Of a stretch of 64,000 nucleotides of DNA, positions 40,399 to 61,642 are shown in pieces (the stretch's first letter is position 1; each line of letters begins with the position of its first letter). The position numbers and the translations under genes are program-made. Location: the NCBI GenBank assembly GCA_002439165.1, contig DJTE01000011.1, forward strand, positions 87,297 through 151,296, given 5' to 3'. Source of the stretch: Chryseobacterium indologenes (GTDB lineage: Bacteria > Bacteroidota > Bacteroidia > Flavobacteriales > Weeksellaceae). The notes beneath the pieces were generated by a model. That model saw only the letters and a list, made by a program, of their open reading frames with translations. It had not been told where the DNA came from and did no database searches.

Positions 40399-40457
40399 GA
40401 ATTAGCAAGGATTTTGCAGTAAGTAAAAAGAAGTTTAATTAAAAATCATTCATAATA

Positions 40458-41060: not shown

Positions 41061-41070
41061 ATCATTAGAA

Positions 41071-41637: not shown

Positions 41638-41660
41638 TTTAACCATAAAATTGTATATCT

Positions 41661-42503
41661 ATGGCAGATGAAAATGTATACGGTCAGAATCTTACCCTAG
41701 ACGAAATCGTATTTGAAAATAGAAACAAGGAATATGGTGCCTATGATCTTAGACATCAGTATCCTAAACTTTTGACAAAATCTTTTATCATAGGAACCGC
41801 ATTGTTCCTGCTTATGGCTTTGTCTCCGTTCATCTATCTTACGATTAAAAATCTTACAGCTCCGCCTAAACAGGAAGTGAAGGCAGATCTATTAAATATT
41901 ATCGAAGAAGATCCGATTATCGAGCAGCCTAAAGAAGAAGAACCACCTCCACCACCTCCACCTCCGAAAGAGGAAGAGAAAATTGAGGTTATTCAGAACG
42001 TTGTTCCTGAGCCTGTAAAAGCTCCGAAGATTGAAACACCACCTCCACCGATTTCCAGACAGTTGGAAACAACAACCGGTTTACAGAATCAGGAAGGGGT
42101 GAAAGCTCCGGCTTATACGCCACCGCCACCACCACCATCTACCGGTACTAAAGCAAGTACCGCAGAGGTGAAAACAAATAACCCTAACGAGATCTACAAA
42201 GATGTAGACCAGTCTGCAGAATATCCTGGAGGTATGGGAGCATTGAGAAAGTTCCTGGGGGAAAACTTTGATACTTCCTTAATGGAAGGAGGTGAAGGTA
42301 CACTTAAAGCCAAGCTTAAATTCGTTGTAGAAAAAGACGGAACTGTTTCCGGAGTTACTATTGAAGAGAAATCTCCAAATGGCGACTTCAACAATGAAGC
42401 GATCCGCGTAGTTAAGAAACTGAAAAAATGGACTCCTGCGAAAAGAAACGGGGAGAGCGTTCGTTCTTACTATAGCGTTCCGTTTACAATGAACTTTGAA
42501 TAG
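41661..42503 (+). CDS. tonB: energy transducer TonB
   Basis: TM anchor, proline-rich spacer (EEPPPPPPPPKEEE, PPPPPPS), and a C-terminal TonB domain (AEYPGGMGALRKFL...SYYSVPFTMNF). Confidence 0.85.
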   Translation: MADENVYGQNLTLDEIVFENRNKEYGAYDLRHQYPKLLTKSFIIGTALFLLMALSPFIYLTIKNLTAPPKQEVKADLLNIIEEDPIIEQPKEEEPPPPPPPPKEEEKIEVIQNVVPEPVKAPKIETPPPPISRQLETTTGLQNQEGVKAPAYTPPPPPPSTGTKASTAEVKTNNPNEIYKDVDQSAEYPGGMGALRKFLGENFDTSLMEGGEGTLKAKLKFVVEKDGTVSGVTIEEKSPNGDFNNEAIRVVKKLKKWTPAKRNGESVRSYYSVPFTMNFE

Positions 42504-42530
42504 TAATTCTTATTCAACTTATAAAAGAAA

Positions 42531-42567
42531 AAGAGAGGCATATGCTTCTCTTTTTTATTTTTTTTGG
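42531..42567 (+). terminator. rho-independent terminator after tonB
   Basis: Stem AGAGAG/CTTCTCT around a GCATATG loop, followed by a long T-run. Confidence 0.6.
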
Positions 42568-42579
42568 TATTTTTGTTAC

Positions 42580-42777
42580 ATGATGTTCAATTGGTTATCC
42601 TTAATTACAGGATTGTTTTATATCGTATTGGGAGGTGTAGTTATTGTCTACAAATTTTTCTTTACGATTCTTGAGCCTGCCGTTGCTTATGCATTGGGTG
42701 CAGTGCTTATTCTTTATGGTATTTTTAGAATCTATAGAGCACTGGGAAAAATTAAAAATTCAGGAAATGAAGAATAG
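42580..42777 (+). CDS. small two-TM membrane protein
   Basis: MMFNWLSLITGLFYIVLGGVVIVYKFFFTILEPAVAYALGAVLILYGIFRIYRAL. The ATG at 42580 lies after the tonB terminator, and the 3' end overlaps the next gene by 11 nt. Confidence 0.5.
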   Translation: MMFNWLSLITGLFYIVLGGVVIVYKFFFTILEPAVAYALGAVLILYGIFRIYRALGKIKNSGNEE

Positions 42778-43639
42778 TTTTAAAGCATTGTTACTCGGTG
42801 CTTTAAGTATCATCGCTGTAAGCTGTAAAAAAGAAGATAAATCTCCGTCTTACCATAAAGGAGACCTTACCATTCTTGCGGATGAATCCTTCAAAAGTGT
42901 TACTGAAGCACTGGCTGGGGGATATATGATCAACTATCCGGATACCCGCATCAAAGTGGTTACCAAAAAAGAAGATCTGGGTTTTATGGACCTTCTTAAT
43001 GATAAAGCCAGGATTGCTGTCATGTCCAGAGATCTTAGTCCTGAAGAAAAGAAAGCTTATGAAGAGCAGGTAGACCTGAAGTTTCTTCCCGCTAAATTTG
43101 CAGCAGATGCCGTCATTTTTGTAGTCCCTAAAGATTCCCCTAAAGAAAAGATCTCTATGGACGAAATTAAAAACGGGCTGGAATCTGATGAAAAAAACTT
43201 TATTTTTGACGGAACCAATTCAAGTAACCTAAACTTTGTCGCTCAGAAATTAAAAAAACAGCCTAAAGACCTTAAATTTTCCATTATACCGGGGAATCAG
43301 AACATTATTGAAGAACTCGGGAAATATCCCGGAAAAATAGGCGTTATAGGACTTAATACATTTAGCCGTCCTTATGATAAGACCTCTCAGAGGCTGAGAG
43401 AAATGGTGAAAGTGCTTCCTGTGGAAGACGGAGGAAAGCTGTATACAGCTGATTCTGATGGAATGCGTGAAATGAAATATCCGTTCACACGTGTTCTGTA
43501 TTTTTTAACCAACGAAGGAAACTTTAATATCGCCAACGGCTTTATCAGGTATTCATGTACCCAGCTGGGACAGATGATTGTGGAAAAGGAAGGACTGCAG
43601 CCTTATAACCTTTATAAAAGAGAGGTACAAATGCGTTAA
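42767..43639 (+). CDS. PstS-family (phosphate-binding-like) periplasmic substrate-binding lipoprotein
   Basis: Lipobox IAVSCKK at the internal ATG 42767 (track start 42644 is rejected). The type-2 periplasmic binding fold sequence resembles PstS-like proteins. Confidence 0.6.
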   Translation: MKNSFKALLLGALSIIAVSCKKEDKSPSYHKGDLTILADESFKSVTEALAGGYMINYPDTRIKVVTKKEDLGFMDLLNDKARIAVMSRDLSPEEKKAYEEQVDLKFLPAKFAADAVIFVVPKDSPKEKISMDEIKNGLESDEKNFIFDGTNSSNLNFVAQKLKKQPKDLKFSIIPGNQNIIEELGKYPGKIGVIGLNTFSRPYDKTSQRLREMVKVLPVEDGGKLYTADSDGMREMKYPFTRVLYFLTNEGNFNIANGFIRYSCTQLGQMIVEKEGLQPYNLYKREVQMR

Positions 43640-45461: not shown

Positions 45462-46181
45462 ATGAAAACAGATATACTTGCTTTTGGAGCACATCCTGAT
45501 GATGTGGAACTGGGATGCGGCGGTACTATTGCCAAAATGATTTCGGAAGGAAAAACATGCGTAATCGTAGATCTTACCAAAGGAGAACTCGGAACAAGAG
45601 GAACCGATGAAACAAGAAAAGAGGAAGCCACAGAAGCGGCCAAAATATTGGGCGTCTCTGCAAGGGAGAATCTTGGAATGAAGGACGGCTTTTTGACCAA
45701 CTCTGAGGAATATCAGATGAAGATCGTAAAAATGATCCGCAGATACAGGCCGGAAATCGTCTTGGCCAATGCAATTGATGACAGACATCCGGACCATGCA
45801 AAAGGAGCGAAATTAGTGTCGGATGCGTGCTTTTTATCCGGACTGAGAAAAATTGAAACTGTAATGGACGGAGAAAACCAGGAAGTCTGGAGACCCAAGC
45901 ATATTTTTCATTACATTCAGTGGAAAGATATAAAGCCGGAGTTCGTTATCGACATCTCCGAACATCTGGATAAAAAAATTGCAGCCTGTATGGCTTTCAA
46001 AACCCAGTTTTATGATCCTGCTTCTAAAGAACCTGTTACTCCAATTGCCACAAAAGACTTTTTTGAGAGTCTGACTTACCGTGCCCAGGATTTGGGACGA
46101 TTATCCGGAGTTGCTTATGCTGAGGGCTTTACGACAGAAAAATTAATTGCTTTGAAAAATTTTGATGGAATTGTTTTGTAA
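45462..46181 (+). CDS. bshB1: bacillithiol biosynthesis deacetylase BshB1 (PIG-L/LmbE family)
   Basis: DILAFGAHPDDVELGCGGTIAKM...DLTKGELGTRG... and HPDH motifs. Confidence 0.8.
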   Translation: MKTDILAFGAHPDDVELGCGGTIAKMISEGKTCVIVDLTKGELGTRGTDETRKEEATEAAKILGVSARENLGMKDGFLTNSEEYQMKIVKMIRRYRPEIVLANAIDDRHPDHAKGAKLVSDACFLSGLRKIETVMDGENQEVWRPKHIFHYIQWKDIKPEFVIDISEHLDKKIAACMAFKTQFYDPASKEPVTPIATKDFFESLTYRAQDLGRLSGVAYAEGFTTEKLIALKNFDGIVL

Positions 46182-46326: not shown

Positions 46327-46820
46327 TTTCTATATGCTCGCCAAAACTATTTTACGGTGTTGATTATTTGTTTGGTAATCCATAAGAAAAGCATATTTTT
46401 GCAGCCGTCATAGATTATTATGATAACCGTTGTCTCTAAAAACTAAAACCTGAATTTGAAAACCATGATACCATGAAACTACCACCTGAATTTTATTCTG
46501 TTAATTTATCAGTACTTATTGTTCCTGCAATTTAGAATCAAAACATTCCTCAGAAAAGATACAAGCTGTATAATCATTTTATTTATTTCAGTAATCACCT
46601 ATAAAATGTCTGTGCTAAAGTAGCCGCAGGTGTTCTGTCGGTAATGATACAGTATGCCGTTTAAAAAGACATTTGCCAGTCAAAGTGTGATAAAGCCTGT
46701 ATTTTTTCGTGAATTAATTTGATTTTGGAAAGCCTGCATTTCATATGGAGTTCAGAAACCATTCAAACGAAGCGGAACCGAAAAGCTAAACGAGTAGGAG
46801 AAATATTACGAAACTTAAAC

Positions 46821-49082
46821 ATGAAGAGATTTAAAACCATGAAAAAACTCTACTTTTTATTTTTAATCCTCAGTTCAATTTCTGCATTTGCACAAACGTA
46901 TAGTTATACAACATACAATACTTCCAATTCAGAAATAGGAAGCAACTATATTGCGGATATTGAAACCGATGCCAATGGTTTATTATGGCTGGCGACTTCT
47001 AACGGGATTTCAACTTTTAACGGAACGGCTTTTACCAATTATAATACGGCGAATTCCGGTATTGCATCCAATTCAATTATAAAAATTCAAATTGACGGTT
47101 TAGGCAGAAAATGGATTGCTTCTCAACTCAATGGGATTATTTTGTATAACGGTACAACCTGGACGAATTATACAACTTCCAATTCAGGCTTACCGGCTAA
47201 TGCAATCAATGATATAGCGGTTGACGGGCAGAATAACCTTTGGATTGCAACAGATTCAGGACTTACAAAATTCAACGGGACTGCCTGGACTACTTATACT
47301 TCTGTAAACAACCTGAATTCTGTGGCAACTGACAGTAATAATGGCGTTTGGGTTACCAATGGAGGGGTATTGTATAAATTCAACGGAACTGATTTTGATT
47401 TTGTAGCTCAGGGAACCGAACGTATATTAAGAATTGCCAACAATACAGTGTATCTGAAAGGTTCTGATAGCTTAATTACCTTAACAACAAGCGGAACTAA
47501 CCTTACATTTATCTATCAAAGCACTTCCTGCCTTGCAGGATACAACCCGAAGGCTTTGGATCTTGACACTAACAACAAGGTATGGATTGGCTTTAACGGA
47601 GCAGGTTTACAAAACTTTACTAATTGCACGACCTATACCAGAGAAAATACAAATTCAGGTTTGCCGGATGACTATTTCAGTGCAGTTAAGACAGTATCTT
47701 CAGGGACTATCTGGCTGGGAACATTGCAGCTTGGTTTGACGAAAATGACGCCAGGTGATGTTCAAAACGGCTGTTTTCAAAAAATAAGCGCGGGTAGCTT
47801 ACATAGTGTAGCTATAAAAACTGACGGAACATTATGGGCCTGGGGAAATAATTACTCAGGACAATTAGGAAATGGTACCACAGCTAATTCATCAATCCCG
47901 AAACAAATAGGGACAGGTAATAACTGGAAAGCGATAGCCGGTGGAAGCAATCACACAATTGCTCAAAAAACAGACGGAACACTGTGGGCATGGGGAGCAA
48001 ATTCAGGCCAGTTGGGAAATGGTACAAATACAGATCAGCATACACCGGTTCAGGTGGGAAGTGCTAATGATAATGATTGGAAAACCTTTGACAGTGGAAT
48101 GTATCATACCGTTGCTATAAAAAATAACGGTACATTGTGGGCCTGGGGGCTTAATCCGTATGGACAGTTAGGTACGGGCAACACTACAACCAGTTTGGTA
48201 CCCGTTCAAATAGGAACTGCCAATAACTGGTTAGCTGTTCAGTGCGGACAGGACTTTACCGTTGCCTTGAAAACAGACGGAACACTTTGGGCCTGGGGAA
48301 GCAATACTTACGGTACTGTTGGAGATGCCTCCAATACCAATAGATTAGTACCGACTCAAATTGGAACCGCCAACAATTGGCAGAGTCTTGGTGTAGGAGC
48401 ACTTCATGTTGCAGCATTAAAGACAGACGGAACACTTTGGGCATGGGGATATAATGCGAATGGACAGCTCGGGGACGGAACAACCACAGATAAGAATATT
48501 CCAACACAAATCGGAACCGCTGCTGACTGGCAGAATATTGCATCCGGAGGAAATCACACCCTTGCAATAAAATCCAACGGAACACTCTGGGCCTGGGGAA
48601 GGAATCAATATGGTCAGTTAGGAAACGGACTTACTGCAAATAGTAACGTTCCTGTACAGATAGGCAGTCTTACAACCTGGAAAACCATTGCCGGTGGAAT
48701 ATCACATACTTTTGCCTTAAAAAGCGACGGGACTGTCAGTACATGGGGATTAAATCTTTATGGTCAATTAGGTGACGGCTCTAATGTTGATAAAAAAATA
48801 CCAACAGCTCTTGCCTGTCCGACTTTAGGTGTTGATGATTTTACCATATCAAAGAATACCATAAAAGCTTATCCGAATCCTGTTCATGACAAGCTGATTA
48901 TTTCGTTTGATCAGAAGATTTCCTTTGTATCGGTTTATAATGTATTGGGGCAGGAAGTATTGAATAAAGAGGTGAATGCCAACGAAGGCACAATAGATTT
49001 TTCCGGTTTAGCACCAGGAGTTTATTGGGTTAAAGTAAATTCAAATGATAATACGAAGGCATTAAAAATCATTAAAAAATAA
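46821..49082 (+). CDS. T9SS cargo: two-component-regulator-propeller (Reg_prop-like) repeats + RCC1-like repeats + type-A sorting CTD
   Basis: Signal peptide MKRFKTMKKLYFLFLILSSISAFAQ at the internal ATG 46821. Reg_prop-like units (LWLATSNGISTFNGTAFTNY, LWIATDSGLTKFNGTAWTTY). At least seven RCC1-like units (HSVAIKTDGTLWAWGNNYSGQLGNGT...). CTD is YPNPVHDKLIISF...GVYWVKV. Confidence 0.8.
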   Translation: MKRFKTMKKLYFLFLILSSISAFAQTYSYTTYNTSNSEIGSNYIADIETDANGLLWLATSNGISTFNGTAFTNYNTANSGIASNSIIKIQIDGLGRKWIASQLNGIILYNGTTWTNYTTSNSGLPANAINDIAVDGQNNLWIATDSGLTKFNGTAWTTYTSVNNLNSVATDSNNGVWVTNGGVLYKFNGTDFDFVAQGTERILRIANNTVYLKGSDSLITLTTSGTNLTFIYQSTSCLAGYNPKALDLDTNNKVWIGFNGAGLQNFTNCTTYTRENTNSGLPDDYFSAVKTVSSGTIWLGTLQLGLTKMTPGDVQNGCFQKISAGSLHSVAIKTDGTLWAWGNNYSGQLGNGTTANSSIPKQIGTGNNWKAIAGGSNHTIAQKTDGTLWAWGANSGQLGNGTNTDQHTPVQVGSANDNDWKTFDSGMYHTVAIKNNGTLWAWGLNPYGQLGTGNTTTSLVPVQIGTANNWLAVQCGQDFTVALKTDGTLWAWGSNTYGTVGDASNTNRLVPTQIGTANNWQSLGVGALHVAALKTDGTLWAWGYNANGQLGDGTTTDKNIPTQIGTAADWQNIASGGNHTLAIKSNGTLWAWGRNQYGQLGNGLTANSNVPVQIGSLTTWKTIAGGISHTFALKSDGTVSTWGLNLYGQLGDGSNVDKKIPTALACPTLGVDDFTISKNTIKAYPNPVHDKLIISFDQKISFVSVYNVLGQEVLNKEVNANEGTIDFSGLAPGVYWVKVNSNDNTKALKIIKK

Positions 49083-49449: not shown

Positions 49450-49692
49450 TGCCATTTAATTTTCTGGAATAATACTTCATTACTTATCAATATCACCTAT
49501 TTTGACCTTACATCAGAACAGGCGGGTAAGTCTTTAAACAGATTTATATAAAATTCCAACGAATTTATTCGTGGCTTCAACAGATATTCATTTGTCAGAA
49601 TTATTATCTGGCTTTCATTTATTATTGCATCATAATTCAAAAGAAAACACATGCATATAAAACTAATAATATTAATTAAAATCAATAAACTC

Positions 49693-50430
49693 ATGAGAAA
49701 ACAATCAATTTTTTTAATTCCGGTTCTTGCCCTGATGCTTCTTTTTACATCTTGTGGAAAAGAGAGTACTCCGGTAGAAATAGGTAAAGAATTCAAAATA
49801 GAGCAAAACCCTATCACTATTGTAAAACTGGAGGAAGGAAAAGTACTGCGTTCATCAAAAGAAGAAAAGGTACAGATAGCACCAAAAGGGAAGAAATATA
49901 TCTATCTGGAGGTGAAAAATCCAAAAAGTGAAATGATCTTTCTGAAAGCTTTTAATAAAGAAAAAGAGCTGAAATCAGAGGACGATCTTCAGTATTTTTC
50001 CCATGATGTGGAAACCGGATTTGAAGATGCTTATTATCTTGTAGATGAAAATACCAGCATTGACAAAATTGTGATCACTACACCTTCTGAGACTGAATAT
50101 GTCGTTATGAATCCAGCGGTAACAAAAAGTAAGCTTTCTATTCCTGAAGATGTTCAGAAGATCATAGATTCTTATAGTGGAGAAAAAGCAATCGGGCTAA
50201 TGGATGGGTTTGCTCCTTATGTTAAAGATGGAAAAAATGTGTACGATGTTGCAAAGCAGGAAGGCCACGTGATTGCAAGTAACATGATGAGTAATAACGC
50301 TGAAGTTGATTACTTTACAGAGGATGGAAAGAAATATATTTTCAATGTGAAAAATATTTTTGGTACAAATGCAAAAGTAACCACCTATTGGGACAACGGT
50401 AAAATAACAAGTATAGAAGTTGTAGAATAA
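49693..50430 (+). CDS. hypothetical lipoprotein
   Basis: Lipobox MRKQSIFLIPVLALMLLFTSCGK at the internal ATG 49693. I recognise no family with confidence. Confidence 0.6.
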   Translation: MRKQSIFLIPVLALMLLFTSCGKESTPVEIGKEFKIEQNPITIVKLEEGKVLRSSKEEKVQIAPKGKKYIYLEVKNPKSEMIFLKAFNKEKELKSEDDLQYFSHDVETGFEDAYYLVDENTSIDKIVITTPSETEYVVMNPAVTKSKLSIPEDVQKIIDSYSGEKAIGLMDGFAPYVKDGKNVYDVAKQEGHVIASNMMSNNAEVDYFTEDGKKYIFNVKNIFGTNAKVTTYWDNGKITSIEVVE

Positions 50431-50824: not shown

Positions 50825-52672
50825 ATGAAATTCAGAAATGATATTTCCTTTCTCCGGGCACTGTCAGTAGTTGCTGTACTATTATATCATTTTAAATTTT
50901 CTTTTTTTAGAGGAGGGTTTATCGGGGTTGACATTTTCTTTGTTATCTCAGGCTATTTAATGACGCGGATCATTCTGTCCGGGCTCTCAGATAATAACTT
51001 CTCTCTTTCTGATTTTTATAAGAAAAGATTGATGAGAATATTTCCTGCACTGCTGGCCATGATTACGTTTTTTGGTATTCTGATCTATTTTTGTATCCCA
51101 ACCCAATGGCTAATCTATACAAAACAATGTTTTGCAAGCAGCCTTTTCTTTTCCAATATTGCATTTTATTACTGGGATGCAGGCTATTTCAGAGGCTCTC
51201 AGCAGCTCAATTTTCTGCTGCACACCTGGTCACTGTCTGTGGAGTGGCAGTTTTATATGGTGTATCCGGTGATGTTGATGCTTGTTCGCAAAACTTATAT
51301 CAATACCCGGAAGGTATTTAACGGTTTCTTTATTATGGGAATTTGCCTGTCTATAGGGCTGATGCTTTTTCATTATTTATTCAGTGCCACCTATTCTTTC
51401 TATATGCTGGATACAAGAGCCTGGGAAATGATGTCCGGAGGTCTTGTTTTTCTGTTCAGAGACAGGATCAGGGGAAAAAGTACACAGGTAAAAAAGAGGC
51501 TTTTTTATGTATCGTTCGCGATCCTTGTCTTCTTTCTCGTTTTTGCGGATGAACATTCCGTAAGATGGTGGCCGTTTGTAACAACTATGTTGCCGGTGGG
51601 GTGTACGGCTCTGATTTTATGGTTACAGCCTGACCTGAAGATTTTCAGTAACAGAATAATTAAATATACAGGAGATATTTCCTATTCACTATATCTGTGG
51701 CACTGGCCGCTGTATGTTTTCAGCTTGTTTTTCGGACTGAACGAAAGCTTTATCTATAAAATGGCATTCATTGTGCTGTCTGTATTTTTTGCCGCTATAT
51801 CTTACCATTGCATTGAAAAGCGGGAGTATAGGAACTATAAATTTACTTTATGGGCTGCTGTAATCCTTTTTTTACTGTCTTATGGTGTTTCAAAGCTGAA
51901 TCCCCAATACTTATTGGATAGAAAAACGGCTAATCTTGCTTATGCAGCAGTGTATTACAAAGATAGCAAAGAAGTTCGGCGGCAGTTCAGGCGGGAAACT
52001 CAGCATCTGAGAGATGTTCAGCCTTTCAGTGAATATAATTTGAATACGCTGAAAATTAATCCTGACAAAAAAAATATCATTTTATTGGGAGACAGCCACG
52101 CAGGAATGTTCTCACAAACCATGCACGATATTCTGAATAAAGATAAATACCACCTGATTCAGGTTACGGGTGATGCTACCTATCCGATGGCTGATGCAGA
52201 AGGAGGATATTCCGGACCCAAAGAACTTTTTAATTACTTTTTTAAAGAATACTTCCCTGAAAACTATCAAAAGATTGATCTTGTTATTATCAATGCCAAT
52301 TACGATGCCTATGAGAAAAATGATCTGGCAGAGAAGATCGGTTTTAATGAAGATTATTTTAAAAAATATAATATTCCGGTTGTTTATCTGGGGCAGACAG
52401 AAAATTACGGCATCGACTTTCCTACCCATTTCTATCTGAAGAACAGATTTAATACTGAACCAGCCAATAGCCAGTCACTGAGAGATAAAGTACGGCAAAC
52501 CAATCGATATTTAATGGAAAGGCTTGGAAACCGGTACATCAGTCTCCTTGACTGTAAGATTACCAGAGTGAGTAAAGAAGGAATTCCTTATATGTACGAT
52601 ATGAACCATCTTACTTATTACGGGACCCGGCAATATCAGGAATTCATCCTGGAATCACTGCCCTTAAAATAA
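50825..52672 (+). CDS. acyltransferase family 3 fused to a C-terminal SGNH domain (OafA/YrhL-like O-acetyltransferase)
   Basis: AT3 N-terminus FLRALSVVAVLLYHF...GVDIFFVISGYL, about 10 TM helices, then an SGNH block I-like ILLGDSHA. Confidence 0.8.
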   Translation: MKFRNDISFLRALSVVAVLLYHFKFSFFRGGFIGVDIFFVISGYLMTRIILSGLSDNNFSLSDFYKKRLMRIFPALLAMITFFGILIYFCIPTQWLIYTKQCFASSLFFSNIAFYYWDAGYFRGSQQLNFLLHTWSLSVEWQFYMVYPVMLMLVRKTYINTRKVFNGFFIMGICLSIGLMLFHYLFSATYSFYMLDTRAWEMMSGGLVFLFRDRIRGKSTQVKKRLFYVSFAILVFFLVFADEHSVRWWPFVTTMLPVGCTALILWLQPDLKIFSNRIIKYTGDISYSLYLWHWPLYVFSLFFGLNESFIYKMAFIVLSVFFAAISYHCIEKREYRNYKFTLWAAVILFLLSYGVSKLNPQYLLDRKTANLAYAAVYYKDSKEVRRQFRRETQHLRDVQPFSEYNLNTLKINPDKKNIILLGDSHAGMFSQTMHDILNKDKYHLIQVTGDATYPMADAEGGYSGPKELFNYFFKEYFPENYQKIDLVIINANYDAYEKNDLAEKIGFNEDYFKKYNIPVVYLGQTENYGIDFPTHFYLKNRFNTEPANSQSLRDKVRQTNRYLMERLGNRYISLLDCKITRVSKEGIPYMYDMNHLTYYGTRQYQEFILESLPLK

Positions 52673-52987: not shown

Positions 52988-53422
52988 ATGGAAATAAAGG
53001 TCACAGTAAAGCAATTGGGTAAAAAACACCCTGTTCTTTCGGAACAGAAACTTGAAATAGAGTATACAGACAATACTATTACGCTGGAAAGGCTGTTAAA
53101 GCTGATCGTTCAGCAGCAGGTGGAAGCATTCAATGCAAAATCATTTGAACTGGAAGACGAAGACTATGCTAAAATCCCCACAGACAATTATCTGAATATC
53201 CTTACCGATACAGGAAAAGCAGGATTCGGAAGTATCTACAATCAGAAAAAGGCAGATCTGGCAAAAGCTCAGGAAAATGCCATTCAGGCTTTTGAAGACG
53301 GGCTGTTTGCCGTATTTTATAATGATGAACAACTTGAAAACCTCACCCAAATCATCAATCTGGGCCTGGAGCATTCCTTTACTTTCATCAGGCTTACCTT
53401 CCTGGCGGGAAGCTATTGGTAG
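52988..53422 (+). CDS. hypothetical 144-aa protein, first gene of the candidate system operon
   Basis: Clean ORF ending 27 nt before the giant ORF on the same strand. It has no signal peptide or TM segment and no motif I recognise. Confidence 0.6.
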   Translation: MEIKVTVKQLGKKHPVLSEQKLEIEYTDNTITLERLLKLIVQQQVEAFNAKSFELEDEDYAKIPTDNYLNILTDTGKAGFGSIYNQKKADLAKAQENAIQAFEDGLFAVFYNDEQLENLTQIINLGLEHSFTFIRLTFLAGSYW

Positions 53423-53449: not shown

Positions 53450-56400
53450 ATGGAAATTACAGAAAAACTAAAATCAAAGGCTCTCGTCAGCAATTATTAC
53501 GAAAAAGTAAAAAAAGACCTCACAGCACTGGCAGAAGGCAATATTTCAGCACGTGTCTTCCAGGATAAGCCTGTACTTAAAAAAGAGGTAGCAGAGACGG
53601 CTCTGCTGCTGAAAGGGAAGGCCAATCATTACCAGCAGCTTACTTTAGGCTCCAAAGAGGCCGAAAAATTAAAAGATTACATCAAACCGGACATCTGGGA
53701 TGATAAAGATTATTACGAACTGCTCGTTTATTACTTTGGACCTTATGCTGATCTGATAAAGTATGCCTGGAACAAAATGGCTTACAAAATGTATCAGGCA
53801 GGATACTACCGCCGTTCATTCCGGGCACCGCATAACGAGCGTTATCTGTTGCTCAATCAGGTGAACCTTTTGCGGGAGCTTGTAAATTTCCCGGTAATCT
53901 ATAATTACAGCAGCGGTAATCAGTATTTTGATCTTTCACTGGAAGAACAGATCATTTACGATCACGCAATAGCCAATAATTCATCCCAGTTTTATGTATG
54001 GTCGGCAGCCATTGATACAGGAAATACAGCCGTCTACAAGTTAATTGAGGATATTATTTTCAATAAACATACAGAAGGAAAAGTATCCAGAAACATTATA
54101 AAGGCTCTGTTGAACAGTGAACAGAAGCACTGCTGGGAGCTCGTTGAAAAACTGTTGCTGGCAGCCCAGAGACAGGAAGGTCTCCGGCAGACCATACTGG
54201 AAGCGCTGGATGAAACCAGTATAGGAGCTCTTCAGTATATGGTTCACGTGATTCTTGAACACAAGCTCACCCGTTTTTCTTCCGTTGTGAGGGCCATAGA
54301 TACCTGGACAGGATTGGGATGGGATGCGGAAAAAGAATCTGTGGTGAAAAATATAGTCTCGCTGGCAGATACTTACTTCAGCAATCCCGAACAGATTCCT
54401 GCTGCCATAAAAAGCAAAAACAATAACGAGGTCTACATGGCACTTTGGGCACAGGCCGTCTGGGATGTGGAAAAAACAGTCCCTTACCTGCACCAGCTCT
54501 TTGATAAAGGAAATACGGAAAAAAAATGTCTGGCGGTAAAGTTTGCGGTGGAAACCGGAGATCCTTATATCCAGATGCCGCTGTTCTATAAAGCAATACA
54601 GGAGGACGATCTGCAGGTGCTGGCATTTGTGGGACCTTCTTTATCCTTATTATTAAGTGTCAATACCGACTCAAAATTCTATATCAATAATGCAGATTAT
54701 CCGGATTTTTTTGAAAAACTCCATGCATTAACCCAAAAGATAGACATAAAGGAAAAAAAATTCGAGGGGAAGATATTCTCATGGCTTAATGCTACTTTTA
54801 ATAAGAATAATTTCTATTCTTCGATGTTCTATCTGGTAGGAGAAGATGAAAGTAAACTGGATCTGGTGCTTTCTTATTTCGACCAGTTTGAACTTTCATT
54901 GCGGGAACAGCTGACGAGGGTACTTTTAGGTGACTTTTACTGCTATTCATTCTCTTACGGAATAGGAAAAAAGAAAAAGGCTGTTACTCCCTTCCAGAAA
55001 GAATTTGCTTTCAGAATTATAAAAGACAGGGGAGAATCTCTGATTGCTTCAGGAATCAATGTACTCCTTCAGAATTCCCTGAATAAAGAAGAAGTCATGA
55101 CTTTCTTCGATATGTTTAAAAGAAAAGGAGGGACGCTCCGTAAAAAACTGATCGAGCTCGTTATTCAGCAGGAGGATGAAACAGTGGTTCCGTTTGTGGA
55201 TGAACTGATGACCAAAGGTGATGTGGAGCAGAGAACAGCTTCTCTGGACCTCATGCTTCAGCTTCAAAAGAACAGAAGAGTGTCGGCCCGGATCACAGAA
55301 TGGACCAAAATATATTCTGAAAGGCCAAAGATCTCCGAAAGAGAACAGAACCTTCTGGAGCAGCTTAATCCTTCCGGAAATCAACAGCAGCTTTCCCCTG
55401 AAAATGGCTTCGGGTTCTATGATCCTAAAGTTATTTCTGCGTTCGGGCTGCCGGAAGTAAAAGCAGATTCCGTATATGCAAAAGCGGTTAAAAAAGAGAA
55501 ATACGGATTCACACAGCCATTAAGCCGGATAAAGGCGGAACTGAAAAAGCTGAATGACCTCTACCTGAAACATAAAGACTATGAGTACGAATTTGAAAAC
55601 TGGGATGGTGCTATGCAGAAACTGCTGCTGGGAAATAGTTTCGTACAGATTAAAAGGAATACCGAAGGTTTTACGGGCGCGCAGTTGACAGAAAACTATC
55701 CTTTGCATGAAGTATGGGAGCAGTGGTATAAAGATTCGGGGCTTGAGCCTAGAGATCTTTTCCTGATGACCTTTGCAGAAAGCTGCGACCATAAAAAATT
55801 CAGGGATTTTCTTGACAATTATGTGTTTTATTGTAGAGATGTGCTGCCGAATCCTAAGAAAGGAGGTTATTTCTGGGATAACCCTATTAAATATATTCTG
55901 GATTCGCTGCAGCATAAATTTGTGTTTGAAGAAAAAACAGACTTCCTGCTGGACATCTGCAGTACATTATTTGCGAATCTTCCGGAAGAAATTATCAATC
56001 ATAAGGCAAAACAAAACGATTACTATTACAGATACGACGGAAACGGCTGGCAGCAGACAGGCTTTTTCAATCTGTTCCTGGATGCGGTTCCGTTCCGGAA
56101 AATTACAGACGAACAGCTGATTAAGCTATGGAATTTATACCGTTGGATGCAGTTCAACGGACTGCCGGAAAATGTAAAGCATACCGTCCCTGATTTCTAC
56201 TTATTCTGTAAAGCTTATGAGCTGAAGGTAATCACCAAAGACGAGTTGTACGAAGGGATTTTCACCGGAGATTCTGTCATAAGAAACCTCACCACTGTCA
56301 AATTCTATCAGAACAGCGAAAAGCTGTTGGAAATCTTCCCTTTCCTGAAACCTGTTATTACAGAAATACAGAATAAATTCCTTGATGTGGAACTTATCCG

Positions 56401-58492
56401 TGGCGATGCCAATACTGCCGTTTCCCACTTTGTACAGGAGTTCAGGGCGATATACGGAGCAGAAAGGTTTGCACAGATACTGAAAGGGCTGGGTAAATCC
56501 GGATTGTATGCCAACTACATATACAGTTATGGCAATGAAAGCATGACCAGGCAAAAGTTATTTTCTTACCTGCTTTCCCAGTGCTATCCTCTGGAAACGG
56601 ATACCCAGAAATCTTTCAACGAAATAATGAAAAAGGAAAAGATCACAGAACTCCGCCTGATACAGGCAGCTGTGTATGCTCCGCAGTGGCAGAAATTCAT
56701 CAGCAGCTATTTGGGCTGGAAAGGGTTGGATTCTGCGATCTGGTGGATGCACGCCCATACCAAAACCGGGGCCTATCAGGAACAGAATTCGGAACTGGAA
56801 AGTGAGGCGGCTAAATATTCATCGGTAGATATTCAGGAGTTTAAAGACGGAGCTGTGGATAAAGAATGGTTTACCAAAGCTTATAAAGAGCTGGGGAAAG
56901 CCCGCTGGGAAATGCTTTACGAATCGGCCAAATATATTTCAGACGGTAACGGGCACCGCCGTGCAAGACTGTATTCAGATACCCTTACCGGAAGCTTAAA
57001 GATCAAAGAGGTAACGGCAAAGGTCAAAGATAAAAGAGATCAGGATTTTCTCCGGGTATACGGCCTTGTTCCGCTAAGCAAAACCAATCCGGAGAAAGAT
57101 GTACTGAGCCGGTACGAATACATACAGCAGTTTAAAAAGGAAAGCCGTGAATTTGGCTCTATGAAACAGGCCAGTGAAGCTTTGGCGGTAAGAGTTGCCT
57201 TAGAAAACCTGGCAAGAAATGCTGGCTATCCTGATCCGATCCGTCTGACCTGGGCTATGGAAACCAGACAGATTCAGAATCTGCTGTCAAAAGAAACCCA
57301 GGTAACCGTAGATGGCGTAACCGTAGGTTTAATCATTGAAACAGACGGAAAAGCTGAACTTGTGGTATTCAGAGATGATAAACAGCTGAAATCTATTCCT
57401 CCGAAAATTAAAAAGGATAAGGCAGTGATAGAATTGGGGAACTACCGTAAAATCATGCGTGAGCAGTGGACCCGTTCCAGGAAAGGACTGGAAGAAGCCA
57501 TGATCAGGGGGGATGAATTCCTTTTTGCTGAAATTCAGAACCTGTTTGAACATCCCATTATTGTAAAACACCTGGAAAAGCTGGTATTTATTTCCAATGA
57601 CGGTAAAATCGGATTTTTTCATGATGGAAACCTGGTGAGTTCTCATGGTGAAATTCAGGAACTGAACAGAGAAAATACACTGCGTATTGCCCATTGTGTA
57701 GATCTGCATCAGAATTCTGTATGGAGCGATTATCAGCATTACTGTTTTGCAGAAAAGCTGATCCAGCCGTTCAAACAGATCTTCAGGGAATTGTATGTGC
57801 CGACACCGGATGAACTGCAGGAGAAATCAGTATCACGCCGTTATGCCGGGCATCAGATCCAGCCGAAGCAGACTTTAGCTCTTCTGAAAACAAGAGGCTG
57901 GAAAGTAGATCATGAAGAAGGGCTGCAGAAGGTTTATCACAAAGAAGGCTTCCAGGTGAAACTTTATGCGATGGCAGACTGGTTCTCGCCGGCAGATATA
58001 GAAAGTCCTACGCTGGAAACCATAGAATTCCATTCGCTGAAAACGTATAAGAATATTCCTTTTGAAGAAATCAATCCGAGGCTGTTCTCGGAAGTCATGC
58101 GTGATGTGGATCTGGTGGTTTCAGTAGCGCATGTAGGAGGGGTAGATCCTGAAGCCAGCCATTCATCCGTTGAAATGAGAGCTGTGCTGATGAAAGAAAC
58201 AGCCCGCCTGTTTAAACTGGATAATATAAAAATAGAAGGTTCACATGTATTGGTGAAAGGCCAGATGGCGGAATACAGTGTGCATTTAGGAAGTGCTGTT
58301 GTTCATCAGACTCCGGGGAGGTATTTATCAATTCTTCCGGTACATTCCCAGCACAGGGGAAGATTATTCCTGCCTTTTGCTGATGATGATCCGAAATCTG
58401 CGGAAGTCCTGTCTAAGGTGTTACTGCTGGCTAAAGACAATGAAATACAGGACCCTACCATACTTTCCCAGATTAAGAGGGAGTTTGTGTAA
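53450..58492 (+). CDS. 1,680-aa cytoplasmic protein: helical-repeat (HEAT/ARM-like) N-terminal ~1,100 aa + DUF4132 (MolR/YehI-like) C-terminal region
   Basis: Uninterrupted 5-kb ORF with no signal peptide, TM segment or Walker A. The C-terminal signatures HPIIVKHLEKLVF..., LIQPFKQIFRELY and LFSEVMRDVDLVVSVAHVGG match my recollection of the DUF4132 family. This is not verified by a search. Confidence 0.6.
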   Translation: MEITEKLKSKALVSNYYEKVKKDLTALAEGNISARVFQDKPVLKKEVAETALLLKGKANHYQQLTLGSKEAEKLKDYIKPDIWDDKDYYELLVYYFGPYADLIKYAWNKMAYKMYQAGYYRRSFRAPHNERYLLLNQVNLLRELVNFPVIYNYSSGNQYFDLSLEEQIIYDHAIANNSSQFYVWSAAIDTGNTAVYKLIEDIIFNKHTEGKVSRNIIKALLNSEQKHCWELVEKLLLAAQRQEGLRQTILEALDETSIGALQYMVHVILEHKLTRFSSVVRAIDTWTGLGWDAEKESVVKNIVSLADTYFSNPEQIPAAIKSKNNNEVYMALWAQAVWDVEKTVPYLHQLFDKGNTEKKCLAVKFAVETGDPYIQMPLFYKAIQEDDLQVLAFVGPSLSLLLSVNTDSKFYINNADYPDFFEKLHALTQKIDIKEKKFEGKIFSWLNATFNKNNFYSSMFYLVGEDESKLDLVLSYFDQFELSLREQLTRVLLGDFYCYSFSYGIGKKKKAVTPFQKEFAFRIIKDRGESLIASGINVLLQNSLNKEEVMTFFDMFKRKGGTLRKKLIELVIQQEDETVVPFVDELMTKGDVEQRTASLDLMLQLQKNRRVSARITEWTKIYSERPKISEREQNLLEQLNPSGNQQQLSPENGFGFYDPKVISAFGLPEVKADSVYAKAVKKEKYGFTQPLSRIKAELKKLNDLYLKHKDYEYEFENWDGAMQKLLLGNSFVQIKRNTEGFTGAQLTENYPLHEVWEQWYKDSGLEPRDLFLMTFAESCDHKKFRDFLDNYVFYCRDVLPNPKKGGYFWDNPIKYILDSLQHKFVFEEKTDFLLDICSTLFANLPEEIINHKAKQNDYYYRYDGNGWQQTGFFNLFLDAVPFRKITDEQLIKLWNLYRWMQFNGLPENVKHTVPDFYLFCKAYELKVITKDELYEGIFTGDSVIRNLTTVKFYQNSEKLLEIFPFLKPVITEIQNKFLDVELIRGDANTAVSHFVQEFRAIYGAERFAQILKGLGKSGLYANYIYSYGNESMTRQKLFSYLLSQCYPLETDTQKSFNEIMKKEKITELRLIQAAVYAPQWQKFISSYLGWKGLDSAIWWMHAHTKTGAYQEQNSELESEAAKYSSVDIQEFKDGAVDKEWFTKAYKELGKARWEMLYESAKYISDGNGHRRARLYSDTLTGSLKIKEVTAKVKDKRDQDFLRVYGLVPLSKTNPEKDVLSRYEYIQQFKKESREFGSMKQASEALAVRVALENLARNAGYPDPIRLTWAMETRQIQNLLSKETQVTVDGVTVGLIIETDGKAELVVFRDDKQLKSIPPKIKKDKAVIELGNYRKIMREQWTRSRKGLEEAMIRGDEFLFAEIQNLFEHPIIVKHLEKLVFISNDGKIGFFHDGNLVSSHGEIQELNRENTLRIAHCVDLHQNSVWSDYQHYCFAEKLIQPFKQIFRELYVPTPDELQEKSVSRRYAGHQIQPKQTLALLKTRGWKVDHEEGLQKVYHKEGFQVKLYAMADWFSPADIESPTLETIEFHSLKTYKNIPFEEINPRLFSEVMRDVDLVVSVAHVGGVDPEASHSSVEMRAVLMKETARLFKLDNIKIEGSHVLVKGQMAEYSVHLGSAVVHQTPGRYLSILPVHSQHRGRLFLPFADDDPKSAEVLSKVLLLAKDNEIQDPTILSQIKREFV

Positions 58493-58520: not shown

Positions 58521-58551
58521 AAAAAGGTACACTTTCAGCGGTGTACCTTTT
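58521..58551 (+). repeat. hairpin element copy 4 (variant AAAAGGTACAC-loop-GTGTACCTTTT); terminator of the giant gene
   Basis: 11-bp stem with a compensated A-to-G / T-to-C change relative to copies 1-3, followed by a T-run. Confidence 0.75.
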
Positions 58552-58680
58552 GTTATAATACCTGAGTGAAGCTGGGAACCGGACGAAAAAAAATATAAAG
58601 ATCATCAATACGATAAGAGTTGATCTTTTTTTACTCATTTTATGATATTAAAATTTATAGGGAGCATCAGTACCTATGGC

Positions 58681-58725
58681 TAAAAGTAACTTCCAGCCTC
58701 CTTCTTCCATCTCCCGGACTTTTAT
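58681..58725 (+). repeat. left copy of an imperfect direct repeat bracketing the SPFH/zinc-ribbon module
   Basis: TAAAAGTAACTTCCAGCCTCCTTCTTCCATCTCCCGGACTTTTA. Hand alignment to 61187..61229 gives 34 matches over 45 columns. Confidence 0.6.
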
Positions 58726-58793: not shown

Positions 58794-58801
58794 TATATTT
58801 G
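58794..58801 (+). promoter_or_regulatory. -7 box TATATTTG upstream of the SPFH gene
   Basis: Exact TAnnTTTG match ending 34 nt upstream of ATG 58836. No well-spaced -33 TTG was seen. Confidence 0.35.
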
Positions 58802-58835: not shown

Positions 58836-59822
58836 ATGGGCATATTCGATTTTATAAGAAATGAACTTATAGAGGTTATTGAATGGGTAGACAACACTAC
58901 CGATACGGTATTATGGAAATTCCAGGATGAAGGTAATAATATAAAGAACGGTGCAAAACTTACCGTACGTGAAAGCCAGGCTGCCGTTCTGATGAATGAA
59001 GGTGAATTTGGAGATGTCTACACTCCGGGACTTCATACGCTTACCACGAATAATATGCCGGTGATCACTACTTTGGAATCCTGGAAATATGGTTTTAATT
59101 CTCCGTTTAAAGTAGATGTTTATTTCATCAGTACCAAACAGTTTACCAATCTAAAGTGGGGAACTTCATCTCCGGTTATTATGAGAGATGCCGAACTGGG
59201 GCAGATCCGTTTAAAATCGTTCGGGAATTTTGCGATAAAAATAGATGATCCTAAGAAGTTTATTACCGCATTTTCAGGAACCAATCCTTATGTAAAAGCA
59301 GACCAGGTTGAGGAAACTCTCCGAAATATTATAGCGAGCAAAATGGCGGAAGGTTTTGCCGAAGCGAATGTTACCGTTCTGGATTTAACCGCTCAGTTTT
59401 CTGAGCTGAGCGAAAAGTTAATGCCTGTTTTCCGGAATGAGTTCGATGCTTACGGAATAAGCCTTGAAAAGTTTTTTATAGAGAGTGTTTCTCTTCCTGA
59501 TGAGGTAGAAAAAATGCTCGATAAGAAAACCCAGCTGAACGTACTGAAAGGCAGTCTTGATGATTTTAATAAAATGCAGGCGGGAATTTCTATGGAGAAT
59601 ATGTCTGAAAACAGTGCGGCCGGGAATGTAATGGGAATGGGGGCAGGAATGCTGATGACCCATGTGCTGAACCAGTCCGCTCAAAGTACTCCCGATACCT
59701 CTTCGAAAAATAAAACTGAGCTGATGGATATCCTGAAGCAGTTAAACGATTTAAAAACACAGGGCATTATCACAGAAGAAGAGTTTACCCAAAAAAAGCA
59801 GGAAATACTGAAACAATTATAG
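58836..59822 (+). CDS. SPFH/band-7 superfamily protein of the YdjI (COG4260, 'virion core protein-like') type with a C-terminal SHOCT domain
   Basis: N-terminus MGIFDFIRNELIEVIEWVDNT...LWKF...IKNGAKLTVRESQAAVLMNEG...YGFNSPFKVDVYFISTKQFT resembles YdjI-family proteins (from memory). The C-terminus ELMDILKQLNDLKTQGIITEEEFTQKKQEILKQL is a SHOCT-type motif. Confidence 0.65.
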   Translation: MGIFDFIRNELIEVIEWVDNTTDTVLWKFQDEGNNIKNGAKLTVRESQAAVLMNEGEFGDVYTPGLHTLTTNNMPVITTLESWKYGFNSPFKVDVYFISTKQFTNLKWGTSSPVIMRDAELGQIRLKSFGNFAIKIDDPKKFITAFSGTNPYVKADQVEETLRNIIASKMAEGFAEANVTVLDLTAQFSELSEKLMPVFRNEFDAYGISLEKFFIESVSLPDEVEKMLDKKTQLNVLKGSLDDFNKMQAGISMENMSENSAAGNVMGMGAGMLMTHVLNQSAQSTPDTSSKNKTELMDILKQLNDLKTQGIITEEEFTQKKQEILKQL

Positions 59823-59828
59823 ACTTCT

Positions 59829-60905
59829 ATGGCAAATATAGTGGAGTATCCGTGTCCTAACTGTAATTCGGAGCTCAATTTTGATTCAGAAAGCCAGAGT
59901 CTTAAATGTTTACACTGCAGCACACTTATTCCTATTGCAGAAAGTAATGAGTTGATTACTGAGCAGCGGATCAATGCATTTTTAGATGCTTCAAAACTGC
60001 CGGTTGTTGAGCTGAAAGAATTTAGTTTCCGTTGCTCAAAATGCGGAAAAGACAATATATGTACGGAGAATATCGCTTTCTTCGAGTGCCGGCACTGCAA
60101 AAATAATATCATTAATACAGACGGGTATCGGTCAAAGCCTATCACTCCGAAATCTATTCTTCCTTTTGAGATTTCCAGGGAAGAAGCATCGGGTATTTTT
60201 CAGGGCTGGATCGGCAAAGGATTCTGGAATGATTCTGCCCTGAAGAAACAGGCTCTTAACGATAAAATGGACGGATGCTATGTGCCCTTCTGGACTCTGG
60301 ATTCTCATACGGAAAGTGCTTGGTCCGGAGAAGCCGGAATTTATTATTATGTAGATATAAAGTATAAAGACCATAACGGACACGAAAAGGTAAAACGGGA
60401 GAGGAGAACACGATGGCATTACAAGTCGGGAAATACGGTTCAGTTTTTTAATGATATGCTTCTGTCGGGATCAAAGGAATTTGAACAGAAAACTATGGAG
60501 GAAATTTACCCTTATGACTTAAATAAGCTTAAACCTTTTAATGCTCAATATTTATTGGGATGGAGTGCCAAAGCTTATGATGGTGATCTGACCCAGTCCT
60601 ATAATTATTTTCATCAGTATATAGATGGTAAGATCCGGGAAATATGTATCAGCCTTTTAAAGGAGGATACTTACAGAGGATTATCGGTGCAAACCCGCTA
60701 TTATAATGAGACATTTAAACATATGGTTCTGCCGGTATGGCGATGTCATTATCTGTTTAAAGGGAAATCATACTTTTATATGATTAATGGGCAGACCGGT
60801 AAAATTTATGGGAAAAAGCCGCTTTCTGCATTCAAAATAGTTTTTACGGTCATGATGATTCTTGCGATTATTGCTGGACTGATTATCATTGGGCGGCAGA
60901 AATAA
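59829..60905 (+). CDS. double zinc-ribbon protein with a C-terminal TM anchor (YdjG-like)
   Basis: CPNC...CLHC and CSKC...CRHC pairs (two zinc ribbons), then a ~200-aa globular region and the terminal TM helix FKIVFTVMMILAIIAGLIIIG. It starts 6 nt after the SPFH gene stop. Confidence 0.65.
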   Translation: MANIVEYPCPNCNSELNFDSESQSLKCLHCSTLIPIAESNELITEQRINAFLDASKLPVVELKEFSFRCSKCGKDNICTENIAFFECRHCKNNIINTDGYRSKPITPKSILPFEISREEASGIFQGWIGKGFWNDSALKKQALNDKMDGCYVPFWTLDSHTESAWSGEAGIYYYVDIKYKDHNGHEKVKRERRTRWHYKSGNTVQFFNDMLLSGSKEFEQKTMEEIYPYDLNKLKPFNAQYLLGWSAKAYDGDLTQSYNYFHQYIDGKIREICISLLKEDTYRGLSVQTRYYNETFKHMVLPVWRCHYLFKGKSYFYMINGQTGKIYGKKPLSAFKIVFTVMMILAIIAGLIIIGRQK

Positions 60906-61186
60906 AACCTGATGGCCGGTATTGTTTTCTGGTGTTGTTTTATATTAATCGGATTGTATCCGATTGTGTGCTAAATCGTCCCTTCGGGACTTCCTCATAA
61001 TAATTTTTTACCGGTTGATCTTTCAAATTTTGAATTCATTGATGGCAAAAGGTTTTCGTTTTAAATGGATGATGTTTTCCGGGTGGGTTTTGGAAATGCT
61101 GCTGCTCAGGAAATAGGGAAGAGGGAAATTATGAAAGCCCTGAAGAGCAATTAGTTCCCTGAATAGACACTGTACGTAATTATAGT

Positions 61187-61229
61187 TAAAAGTAGTTTCC
61201 AGCTTCTTTCTTCCGGTTTCCGGCTTTCA
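61187..61229 (+). repeat. right copy of the imperfect direct repeat bracketing the SPFH/zinc-ribbon module
   Basis: TAAAAGTAGTTTCCAGCTTCTTTCTTCCGGTTTCCGGCTTTCA; see 58681..58725. Confidence 0.6.
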
Positions 61230-61258: not shown

Positions 61259-61284
61259 AAAAAAAGCACCTTTTCCAGATGCTT
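61259..61284 (-). terminator. rho-independent terminator after the DUF3276 gene
   Basis: The minus-strand RNA AAGCAUC-UGGAAAA-GGUGCUU forms a 7-bp stem with one G-U pair, followed by U7. Confidence 0.55.
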
Positions 61285-61306: not shown

Positions 61307-61642
61307 TTAAACCTCGTCGTCAGAATCTATTGTGAATGATCTGCTTTTGAAGTCTTTGTCATGTTTTTCTGAAATTACATCCTCACCCTTCTCGTTAATG
61401 ATGAAATCTGTGGACTCATTAAACATCTCCTGAAAACTTTTAAAATCTTCTTTGTAAAGATAAATTTTGTGCTTCTCGAATGTAGCTTCCCCATTCTCTC
61501 CGAAGTTCTTTTTACTTTCGGTAATCGTAAGATAATAATCTCCTGCTTTCGTCTCGCGCACATCAAAGAAATAAGTTCTTCTCCCTGCTTTTAACACCTT
61601 AGTGAAAATTTCATTTTCATGGCGTTCCTTGTATTCACTCAT
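61307..61642 (-). CDS. DUF3276 / PUR-alpha-like nucleic-acid-binding protein
   Basis: IFTKVLKAGRRTYFFDVRETKAGDYYLTITESKK...FEKHKIYLYKEDF is the conserved Bacteroidota PUR-like repeat protein (from memory). Confidence 0.7.
   Translation of the reverse strand: MSEYKERHENEIFTKVLKAGRRTYFFDVRETKAGDYYLTITESKKNFGENGEATFEKHKIYLYKEDFKSFQEMFNESTDFIINEKGEDVISEKHDKDFKSRSFTIDSDDEV

Follow-up and report, generated by a model that had tools for sequence, protein, structure and literature searches.

A predicted two-gene operon of Chryseobacterium indologenes pairing a YdjI-type SPFH protein with a YdjG-like zinc-ribbon membrane protein

The closest described system for the gene pair analyzed here is the pspA-ydjGHI operon of Bacillus subtilis, also called pspA-samGHI, which encodes PspA, the zinc-ribbon membrane protein YdjG (SamG), YdjH (SamH), and the SPFH protein YdjI (SamI). 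In B. subtilis, the membrane foci of YdjI need YdjG and YdjH (PMC8581546). SamI was proposed to be a higher oligomer that restrains SamGH signalling (Baur et al. 2026; bioRxiv 10.64898/2026.02.06.704340). The present study concerns two adjacent genes, designated P1 and P2, in a stretch of 64,000 nucleotides from C. indologenes (assembly GCA_002439165.1, contig DJTE01000011.1, positions 87,297 to 151,296 of the forward strand). This whole stretch is referred to as the window, and all coordinates are counted from its first letter. A sequence-only reading of the window, made without database searches, had related the two genes to ydjI and ydjG. These family assignments proved correct by BLASTP and Pfam, and I am highly confident that P1 is a YdjI-type SPFH protein and that P2 is a YdjG-like protein. 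The locus is predicted to be a self-contained two-gene operon that encodes, in its Bacteroidota form, an SPFH-anchor dyad of wide conservation. It is moderately probable that P2 anchors an oligomeric P1 scaffold on the cytoplasmic side of the inner membrane and that the two serve a PspA-independent kind of membrane organization or stress handling.

The two proteins and their Bacillus relatives

The two genes and their parts are as follows. KD19 denotes the 19-residue Kyte-Doolittle mean.

58836..59822, + strand: P1 open reading frame (ORF), 328 residues (ORF listing); soluble SPFH protein, Band_7_1 / YdjI (SamI) family, ending in SHOCT (Pfam, BLASTP)
58914..59540, + strand: Band_7_1 (SPFH) domain of P1, residues 27-235 (PF13421, E 2e-82; PF01145, E 2.7e-16)
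59733..59810, + strand: SHOCT bi-helical tail of P1, residues 300-325 (PF09851, E 1.1e-7)
59829..60905, + strand: P2 ORF, 358 residues (ORF listing); YdjG (SamG)-like, predicted tail-anchored membrane protein (BLASTP, AlphaFold2 model)
59853..59918, + strand: zinc ribbon 1 of P2, C9, C12, C27, and C30 (invariant cysteines; beta-hairpins 4-27 in the model)
60033..60098, + strand: zinc ribbon 2 of P2, C69, C72, C87, and C90 (invariant cysteines; strands 64-96 in the model)
60141..60818, + strand: central alpha+beta domain of P2, residues ~105-330 (alignments, model)
60837..60893, + strand: C-terminal transmembrane helix of P2, residues 337-355 (KD19 2.96; helix 334-357 in the model)

The Pfam search placed P1 in the Band_7_1 and SHOCT families, in agreement with the COG4260/YdjI-like SPFH region and the SHOCT tail that had been recognized in the letters. 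The match to PF13421 reached 276.3 bits (cut-off 24) over profile positions 2-210 of 211, and the match to PF09851 reached 31.9 bits (cut-off 27). The Bacillus pspA-ydjGHI locus was recovered from the genome collection via a published ydjG primer sequence (PMC8581546), and its four genes were read in Bacillus stercoris (L085; related loci are denoted by L numbers). According to Pfam, PspA of B. stercoris is a PspA_IM30 protein, YdjH is a TPM_phosphatase protein (E 1e-23), and YdjI consists of Band_7_1 and a zinc ribbon. P1 and this YdjI orthologue are homologous, with 27% identity over 297 residues in BLASTP (E 2e-30). P1 has no transmembrane segment (maximum KD19 = 1.0), and a single helix follows the SPFH core in its AlphaFold2 model. 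Residues ~256-288 are a Gly/Met/Gln-rich linker of low confidence ahead of SHOCT, and in the model a stretch whose predicted local distance difference test (pLDDT) is below 50 precedes helices 289-308 and 314-327. The tail lacks CxxC motifs, so that the C-terminal zinc ribbon in the description of YdjI and COG4260 is not found in P1. No match to the P1 sequence was found in the PDB. At least 7692 homologues of P1 were found; among the 120 best of these, 118 combine PF13421 with PF09851.

P2 is homologous to Bacillus YdjG over its full length (BLASTP E 4e-35, 27% identity, residues 4-338) and has the same architecture. All P2 homologues are also found by a hidden Markov model (HMM) built from YdjG. 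The two CxxC...CxxC ribbons, the middle domain, and the single C-terminal transmembrane helix of the sequence-only reading were all recovered. The eight ribbon cysteines are invariant in an alignment of 112 homologues, and only three residues (RQK) follow the transmembrane helix. P2 lacks a signal peptide, its zinc sites are rich in cysteine, and its only transmembrane helix ends three residues before the C-terminus. Judged from the sequence and the model, P2 is therefore almost certainly a tail-anchored inner-membrane protein whose ribbons and central domain face the cytoplasm. The central region of about 225 residues is beta-rich and carries the conserved motifs IIPF, GxYVPFWxxD, LLPVW, and NGQTGK. 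HMMER searches over 1.84 billion representatives gave 5655 clusters at 50% identity for the P2 family (E<=1e-3). With full-length homologues in the hundreds to thousands for each of them, the two ORFs are genuine genes rather than products of chance. An exact lookup of the P2 sequence in public assemblies returned no record. Homologues of P2 are usually annotated as hypothetical or are labelled "DNA-directed RNA polymerase subunit RPC12/RpoP", "ribosomal protein L37AE/L43A", "Replication restart DNA helicase PriA", or "A2L zinc ribbon protein". Such names appear to be erroneous and to stem solely from the zinc ribbons.

The fold of the P2 central domain was examined with an AlphaFold2 model (pLDDT 93.7, predicted template modelling score 0.85), which has the two ribbons, a few helices, and the terminal transmembrane helix. 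Two very long beta-hairpins (148-213 and 281-320) have strands of 28-33 residues. P2 matched no Pfam family; no zinc-ribbon threshold was reached, and no Pfam model covers the central domain. Against the PDB, the sequence gave only weak matches to the eL43 zinc ribbon, and a Foldseek search with the model gave no significant fold match, the top non-significant ones being beta-pore-forming toxins. The central domain of the YdjG family was stated to be a YpeB-related NTF2-like fold (PMC11237479). In BFVD, the only significant matches to the model were proteins of Yasminevirus (A0A5K0UBJ7, E 3e-11) and Edafosvirus (A0A3G4ZSZ8, E 1.6e-8), with template modelling scores of 0.44-0.49 over ~260 aligned columns and 13-16% identity. 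These proteins of giant viruses (Klosneuvirinae) are annotated as "DnaJ-like subfamily C member 3", and as named they differ from P2 in the N-terminal context.

How far is the pair alike to the Bacillus system? P1 and YdjI are both soluble and have a low-complexity linker followed by a small C-terminal module, P2 and YdjG have in common the two ribbons, the same conserved motifs, and the C-terminal transmembrane helix, and the genes appear co-operonic in both organisms. In contrast, the Chryseobacterium locus has neither PspA nor YdjH (TPM), an absence that had been noted from the ORFs and was confirmed here with phmmer and iterated HMMs. The gene order is SPFH then anchor here and G-H-I in Bacillus, and the tail is SHOCT in P1 and a zinc ribbon in YdjI. 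The host is a Gram-negative member of Bacteroidota with no sigma-W context, and identity to the Bacillus proteins is only ~27%.

The ribbons and the membrane-proximal motif of P2 bear on a different explanation, in which P2 would be the active part of a membrane-tethered signalling or regulatory device. The ribbons would bind nucleic acid or a regulator, the NGQTGK loop would sense the bilayer, and P1 would serve mainly as the brake of P2 rather than as a structural scaffold, in line with the model of Baur et al. in which SamI restrains SamGH. NGQTGK and basic residues stand directly before the transmembrane helix and are nearly invariant in the alignments. The YdjG ribbon (Zn_Ribbon_TF) is of a DNA-binding type (Popp et al., PMC9239133), and the Bacillus YdjG indeed has a TFIIB-type ribbon in Pfam (PF08271, E 1.8e-12). 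However, P2 itself falls below every Pfam zinc-ribbon threshold, no conserved transcription factor or kinase was found beside the dyad, and the samI phenotype of B. subtilis is suppressed by deletion of samH, for which there is no SamH/TPM counterpart here. I consider a signalling device rather unlikely, and the anchoring of P1 by P2 is the reading kept in what follows.

The two ORFs lie 6 nt apart, with the same coordinates and gap as had been described: the P1 stop codon TAG (59820-59822) is followed by acttct and the P2 start codon ATG (59829). This spacing suggests co-expression. Three further features delimit the predicted transcription unit.

58522..58551, no strand assigned: hairpin terminator of the preceding gene for a 1680-residue DUF5724/DUF4132 protein (11-pair stem-loop and T run)
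58794..58801, + strand: candidate Bacteroidota -7 box TATATTTG, consensus TAnnTTTG (pattern search; putative function)
61264..61284, no strand assigned: hairpin terminator common to the pair and the convergent DUF3276 gene (61307-61642, - strand) (terminator-like site, T-rich on both sides)

The first hairpin is the predicted upstream limit of the unit, and the second is the probable 3′ end of its transcript. The latter is also kept in a Chryseobacterium locus where the pair is missing (L108). The box TATATTTG lies 35 nt 5′ of the P1 start codon and is a plausible promoter of P1-P2; the motif is barely enriched in the window (87 observed, 71 expected). The idea that the pair has a transcription unit of its own is consistent with these terminators on both sides, the promoter being plausible only.

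Gene order, partners, and tails across phyla

Is such a pair common? I scanned one genome per species with an alignment of P2 and found relatives in at least 591 species, belonging to Bacteroidota, Alpha-, Beta-, Gamma-, and Deltaproteobacteria, Cyanobacteria, Acidobacteriota, Planctomycetota, Verrucomicrobiota, Armatimonadota, Chloroflexota, and Firmicutes. The counts of loci given below refer to the 80 best P2 loci and rest on tblastn and HMM searches; 73 of the 80 have enough upstream DNA to be assessable. In 56 of these 73 loci, from many phyla, the gene immediately upstream of the P2 homologue on the same strand is a Band_7_1 gene, and a divergent Band_7_1 gene lies beside the P2 homologue in four more. 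The ORFs that intervene in four loci are unrelated, e.g., cytochrome b561-like proteins. Neither PspA nor TPM was found in the 64-kb window or in the 80 related loci by phmmer and iterated HMMs built from Bacillus PspA, Bacillus YdjH, and the TPM protein of Caldalkalibacillus. The TPM search detected its positive controls, namely Bacillus YdjH (E 1e-23) and Caldalkalibacillus. Around the 80 loci, iterated HMMs revealed no conserved third gene, and in a Pfam scan the 50 flanking ORFs fell into heterogeneous housekeeping families only, with neither PspA nor TPM among them.

These results indicate that SPFH then anchor is the standard order, and that a dyad free of PspA and TPM is the standard composition within the clade that includes the proteins of the window. 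The G-H-I order behind pspA in B. subtilis is the unusual case. The gene order had been called inverted, which is true relative to B. subtilis and is no departure from the norm of the family. The pair had also been taken for a minimal module; on the contrary, the PspA/TPM-free pair is predominant across Bacteroidota, Proteobacteria, Cyanobacteria, Acidobacteriota, Firmicutes, and others. Loci of the Caldalkalibacillus, Paenibacillus, and Clostridium type have the same SPFH-then-anchor order and close spacing as in Chryseobacterium. Their SPFH proteins, unlike P1, end in a double zinc ribbon. In Caldalkalibacillus, the order is Band_7_1, YdjG-like, and then TPM, while TPM is not found here. Some genomes have two YdjG-like genes. 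In L065 (1351-3758), they are a tandem pair after one SPFH gene; in L028 (12050-14080), a second YdjG-like gene of 676 residues lies on the opposite strand ~4 kb away.

The C-terminal tails of the SPFH partners were compared among the 56 Band_7_1 proteins encoded beside YdjG-like genes. GYF_2 is the most frequent tail (37 of 56); it is followed by a poly-proline end and occurs in Proteobacteria, Cyanobacteria, Acidobacteriota, and some Bacteroidota. SHOCT tails (11) belong nearly all to Bacteroidota, and double zinc-ribbon tails (seven) mostly to Firmicutes. Thus, the ribbon on the neighbouring protein and the SHOCT in place of a ribbon, which had been pointed out as peculiar, are as observed but no oddity; the SHOCT tail is the lineage-typical form in Bacteroidota. 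Since a constant SPFH core carries swappable small tails on a low-complexity linker, the tail may have a role in docking or assembly rather than in catalysis. The GYF_2 and poly-proline tails were seen on L018, L024, L047, L067, and 33 other loci. Because proline-rich peptides are ligands of GYF domains, these tails may self-associate head to tail.

The architecture of P1 itself is already known. Band 7 (PF13421) is the domain most commonly associated with SHOCT, and the Band_7_1+SHOCT proteins of that survey have a domain architecture identical to that of P1 (Eberhardt et al. 2013, PMC3581485). The YdjG-like neighbour and the function of these proteins were not addressed there. SHOCT was later proposed to be a membrane-proximal docking module (PMC11237479).

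Residence of the pair in Chryseobacterium

To place the pair in its genus, 80 Chryseobacterium species loci anchored on DUF3276 were compared, all of which have the DUF3276-ABC backbone. The pair is present in only one of them, that of Chryseobacterium sp. c4a, which is the nearest genome relative (P1 91%, P2 81%, same neighbours). In 21 of the 80 loci the site is empty, the DUF5724 giant gene abutting DUF3276; these include L108, the closest by backbone identity. Five loci have other cargo in the same slot, and in 52 the giant gene is also absent. Thus, the accessory distribution that had been expected is borne out, and the pair is accessory in Chryseobacterium. In metagenome and isolate contigs whose P1 is 79-90% identical, the pair lies at the same place beside DUF3276 and the upstream neighbours differ. 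PIG-L is directly followed by the pair in L168, and a Kelch/T9SS (type IX secretion system) protein stands between them in L169.

The pair had been described as bracketed by an imperfect direct repeat and had been suggested to be horizontally acquired. The repeat was recovered; it is 48 nt in length and its two copies are 75% identical, with differences that are mostly transitions.

58670..58717, + strand: upstream copy of the 48-nt imperfect direct repeat (repeat search, 75% identity to 61176-61223)
61176..61223, + strand: downstream copy of the 48-nt imperfect direct repeat (repeat search)

A recently transferred mobile cassette, inserted between the DUF5724 gene and DUF3276 and bounded by these repeats, would agree with the bracketing, with the empty sites in 21 species including the closest relative, and with the different cargo in the same slot of L110 and L125. 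However, the repeat is absent from the rest of the window and from the 170 related loci examined, and the pair's flanks in L001, L168, and L169 lack it as well. As a mobile-element boundary the repeat was rejected because of its 75% identity and its absence from relatives. The guanine-cytosine content of the pair, overall (GC) and at third codon positions (GC3), equals the window mean, and no integrase or transposase was found near the pair. At the same position beside DUF3276, the pair and the backbone have diverged in step (P1 79-91%, P2 65-83%, ABC 88-92%), which is compatible with vertical descent and repeated loss or with homologous exchange inside the genus. A recent cassette is thus improbable, and no positive sign of horizontal acquisition was found. 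An old residence with repeated loss, or exchange within the genus, fits better than a recent foreign insertion.

Between PIG-L (45462-46181) and DUF3276 (61307-61642) lies a variable island, with the pair at its edge. Besides the pair, the island contains a T9SS-sorted RCC1-repeat protein (46719-49082), an AT3-SGNH acyltransferase (50825-52672), and the DUF5724 giant gene, as well as two ORFs without a Pfam family (49651-50430 and 52988-53422). The giant gene (53450-58492, + strand), directly upstream of the pair, encodes a protein of 1680 residues with DUF5724 (E 0, 1160 bits), DUF4132, and DUF7737. It is found at this position in 27 of the 80 Chryseobacterium species loci with 75-89% identity. 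The slot between DUF3276 and the DUF5724 gene holds a 493-residue repeat protein, apparently T9SS-sorted, in L110 (6749-8230), and a LytTR-type response regulator with a lipoprotein in L125 (6966-8632). Upstream of the island, an ExbB/ExbD/ExbD/TonB cluster followed by a PBP-like gene (39535-43639) is syntenic with L168 and L169. Beside the DUF3276 terminator, the heptamer (GCCATAA)n forms a tandem array at the empty site of L108 (6395-6425) and next to the pair in L169 (10259-10335); no such array was found at the corresponding place of the window.

Could the pair be an anti-phage or abortive-infection module, as had also been suggested? In such a module, P2 would be a membrane-acting effector whose long beta-hairpins could insert or oligomerize, and the P1 scaffold would keep P2 inactive until infection perturbs the membrane. 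The pair is accessory and sits in a slot that is variable, with other cargo in other species. Loss of SamI unleashes harmful SamGH activity in B. subtilis (10.64898/2026.02.06.704340), which has the logic of a brake and an effector. The strands of 28-33 residues in the P2 model and the non-significant toxin matches of the Foldseek search would also suit an effector. However, PADLOC gave nothing above noise, with no match for P1 and a best E of 0.01 for P2 over 30-45 zinc-ribbon residues, and PHROGs matched the SHOCT tail only. The neighbours of the related loci are of the housekeeping kind, with no defence islands in the Pfam scan of flanking ORFs, and the island of the window, with its T9SS RCC1-repeat, AT3-SGNH, and DUF5724 genes, is without defence or mobile genes. 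The family is also very broadly and stably distributed. A defence module is therefore very improbable, and the suggestion found no support in PADLOC, PHROGs, the neighbourhoods, or the fold comparisons.

Possible membrane role and meaning

The anchoring of P1 by P2 can be pictured as follows. P2 would recruit P1 to the cytoplasmic face of the membrane, where P1 would self-assemble into an oligomeric scaffold of the SPFH type. SHOCT, on its flexible low-complexity linker, might touch P2, adjacent P1 subunits, or the membrane as an additional contact. Such a complex would serve membrane organization or the handling of envelope stress without a dedicated PspA or TPM (YdjH) partner. The analogy is drawn from B. 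subtilis, where the YdjI foci depend on YdjG and YdjH and SamI restrains SamGH. The conserved adjacency (56 of 73 loci, and four divergent) and the 6-nt spacing were counted in favour of this picture, as were the family assignments, the conserved architecture and topology of P2, the soluble nature of P1, the lack of PspA and TPM in related loci, and the swappable tails. An SPFH scaffold with an adjacent dedicated membrane partner, as here, is also known from HflK/C-FtsH, QmcA-YbbJ/NfeD, and the flotillins FloA/FloT. In contrast to P1, which has no anchor, the SPFH proteins HflK/C, QmcA, and FloA/FloT have their own transmembrane segment or hairpin together with long coiled-coil or flotillin regions. 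The partners NfeD and FtsH are unrelated to P2.

Several observations weigh against this picture. The main one is that, in two-hybrid assays with the B. subtilis proteins, YdjI contacts YdjH and PspA rather than YdjG, and YdjG contacts YdjH (PMC8581546). Anchoring of P1 may therefore depend on a further partner that this locus lacks. No Band_7_1 gene lies within the flank of the P2 homologue in 13 of the 73 assessable loci, and thus P2 can exist without an adjacent SPFH gene. The one SHOCT domain that was tested did not oligomerize (PMC3581485). The search for PspA and TPM in the window is a weak test and covers 64 kb of the genome. RNA runs bearing the species label common to some of the DNA runs gave no reads at the locus.

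What does the pair mean for the family? The traits that seemed special, namely the gene order, the lack of PspA and YdjH, and the SHOCT tail, are the norm outside B. subtilis. A pair without PspA is common across phyla, and in this genome it is a real, understudied, and ordinary accessory pair. More tentatively, the dyad could be an autonomous and ancient membrane module that is independent of PspA, and the Psp-linked operon of B. subtilis could be a late elaboration of it. The SHOCT, GYF_2 with poly-proline, and double zinc-ribbon tails might then be alternative latches that close the SPFH oligomer or dock on a partner. The central domain of P2 might likewise be a new membrane-proximal fold, because no solved structure is related to it and its only recurrence is in the giant-virus proteins annotated with a J-domain. 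This broader reading is less likely than not.

The only experimentally studied relative is the PspA-SamGHI system of B. subtilis, in which the contributions of SamG, SamH, SamI, and PspA are hard to separate. The bare dyad, found here and in most of the phyla sampled, is a simpler system in which to study the functions of a soluble SPFH protein and a YdjG-type anchor. The P2 family comprises ~5,600 clusters at 50% identity, its central domain is missing from Pfam, and it would benefit from a correct name.

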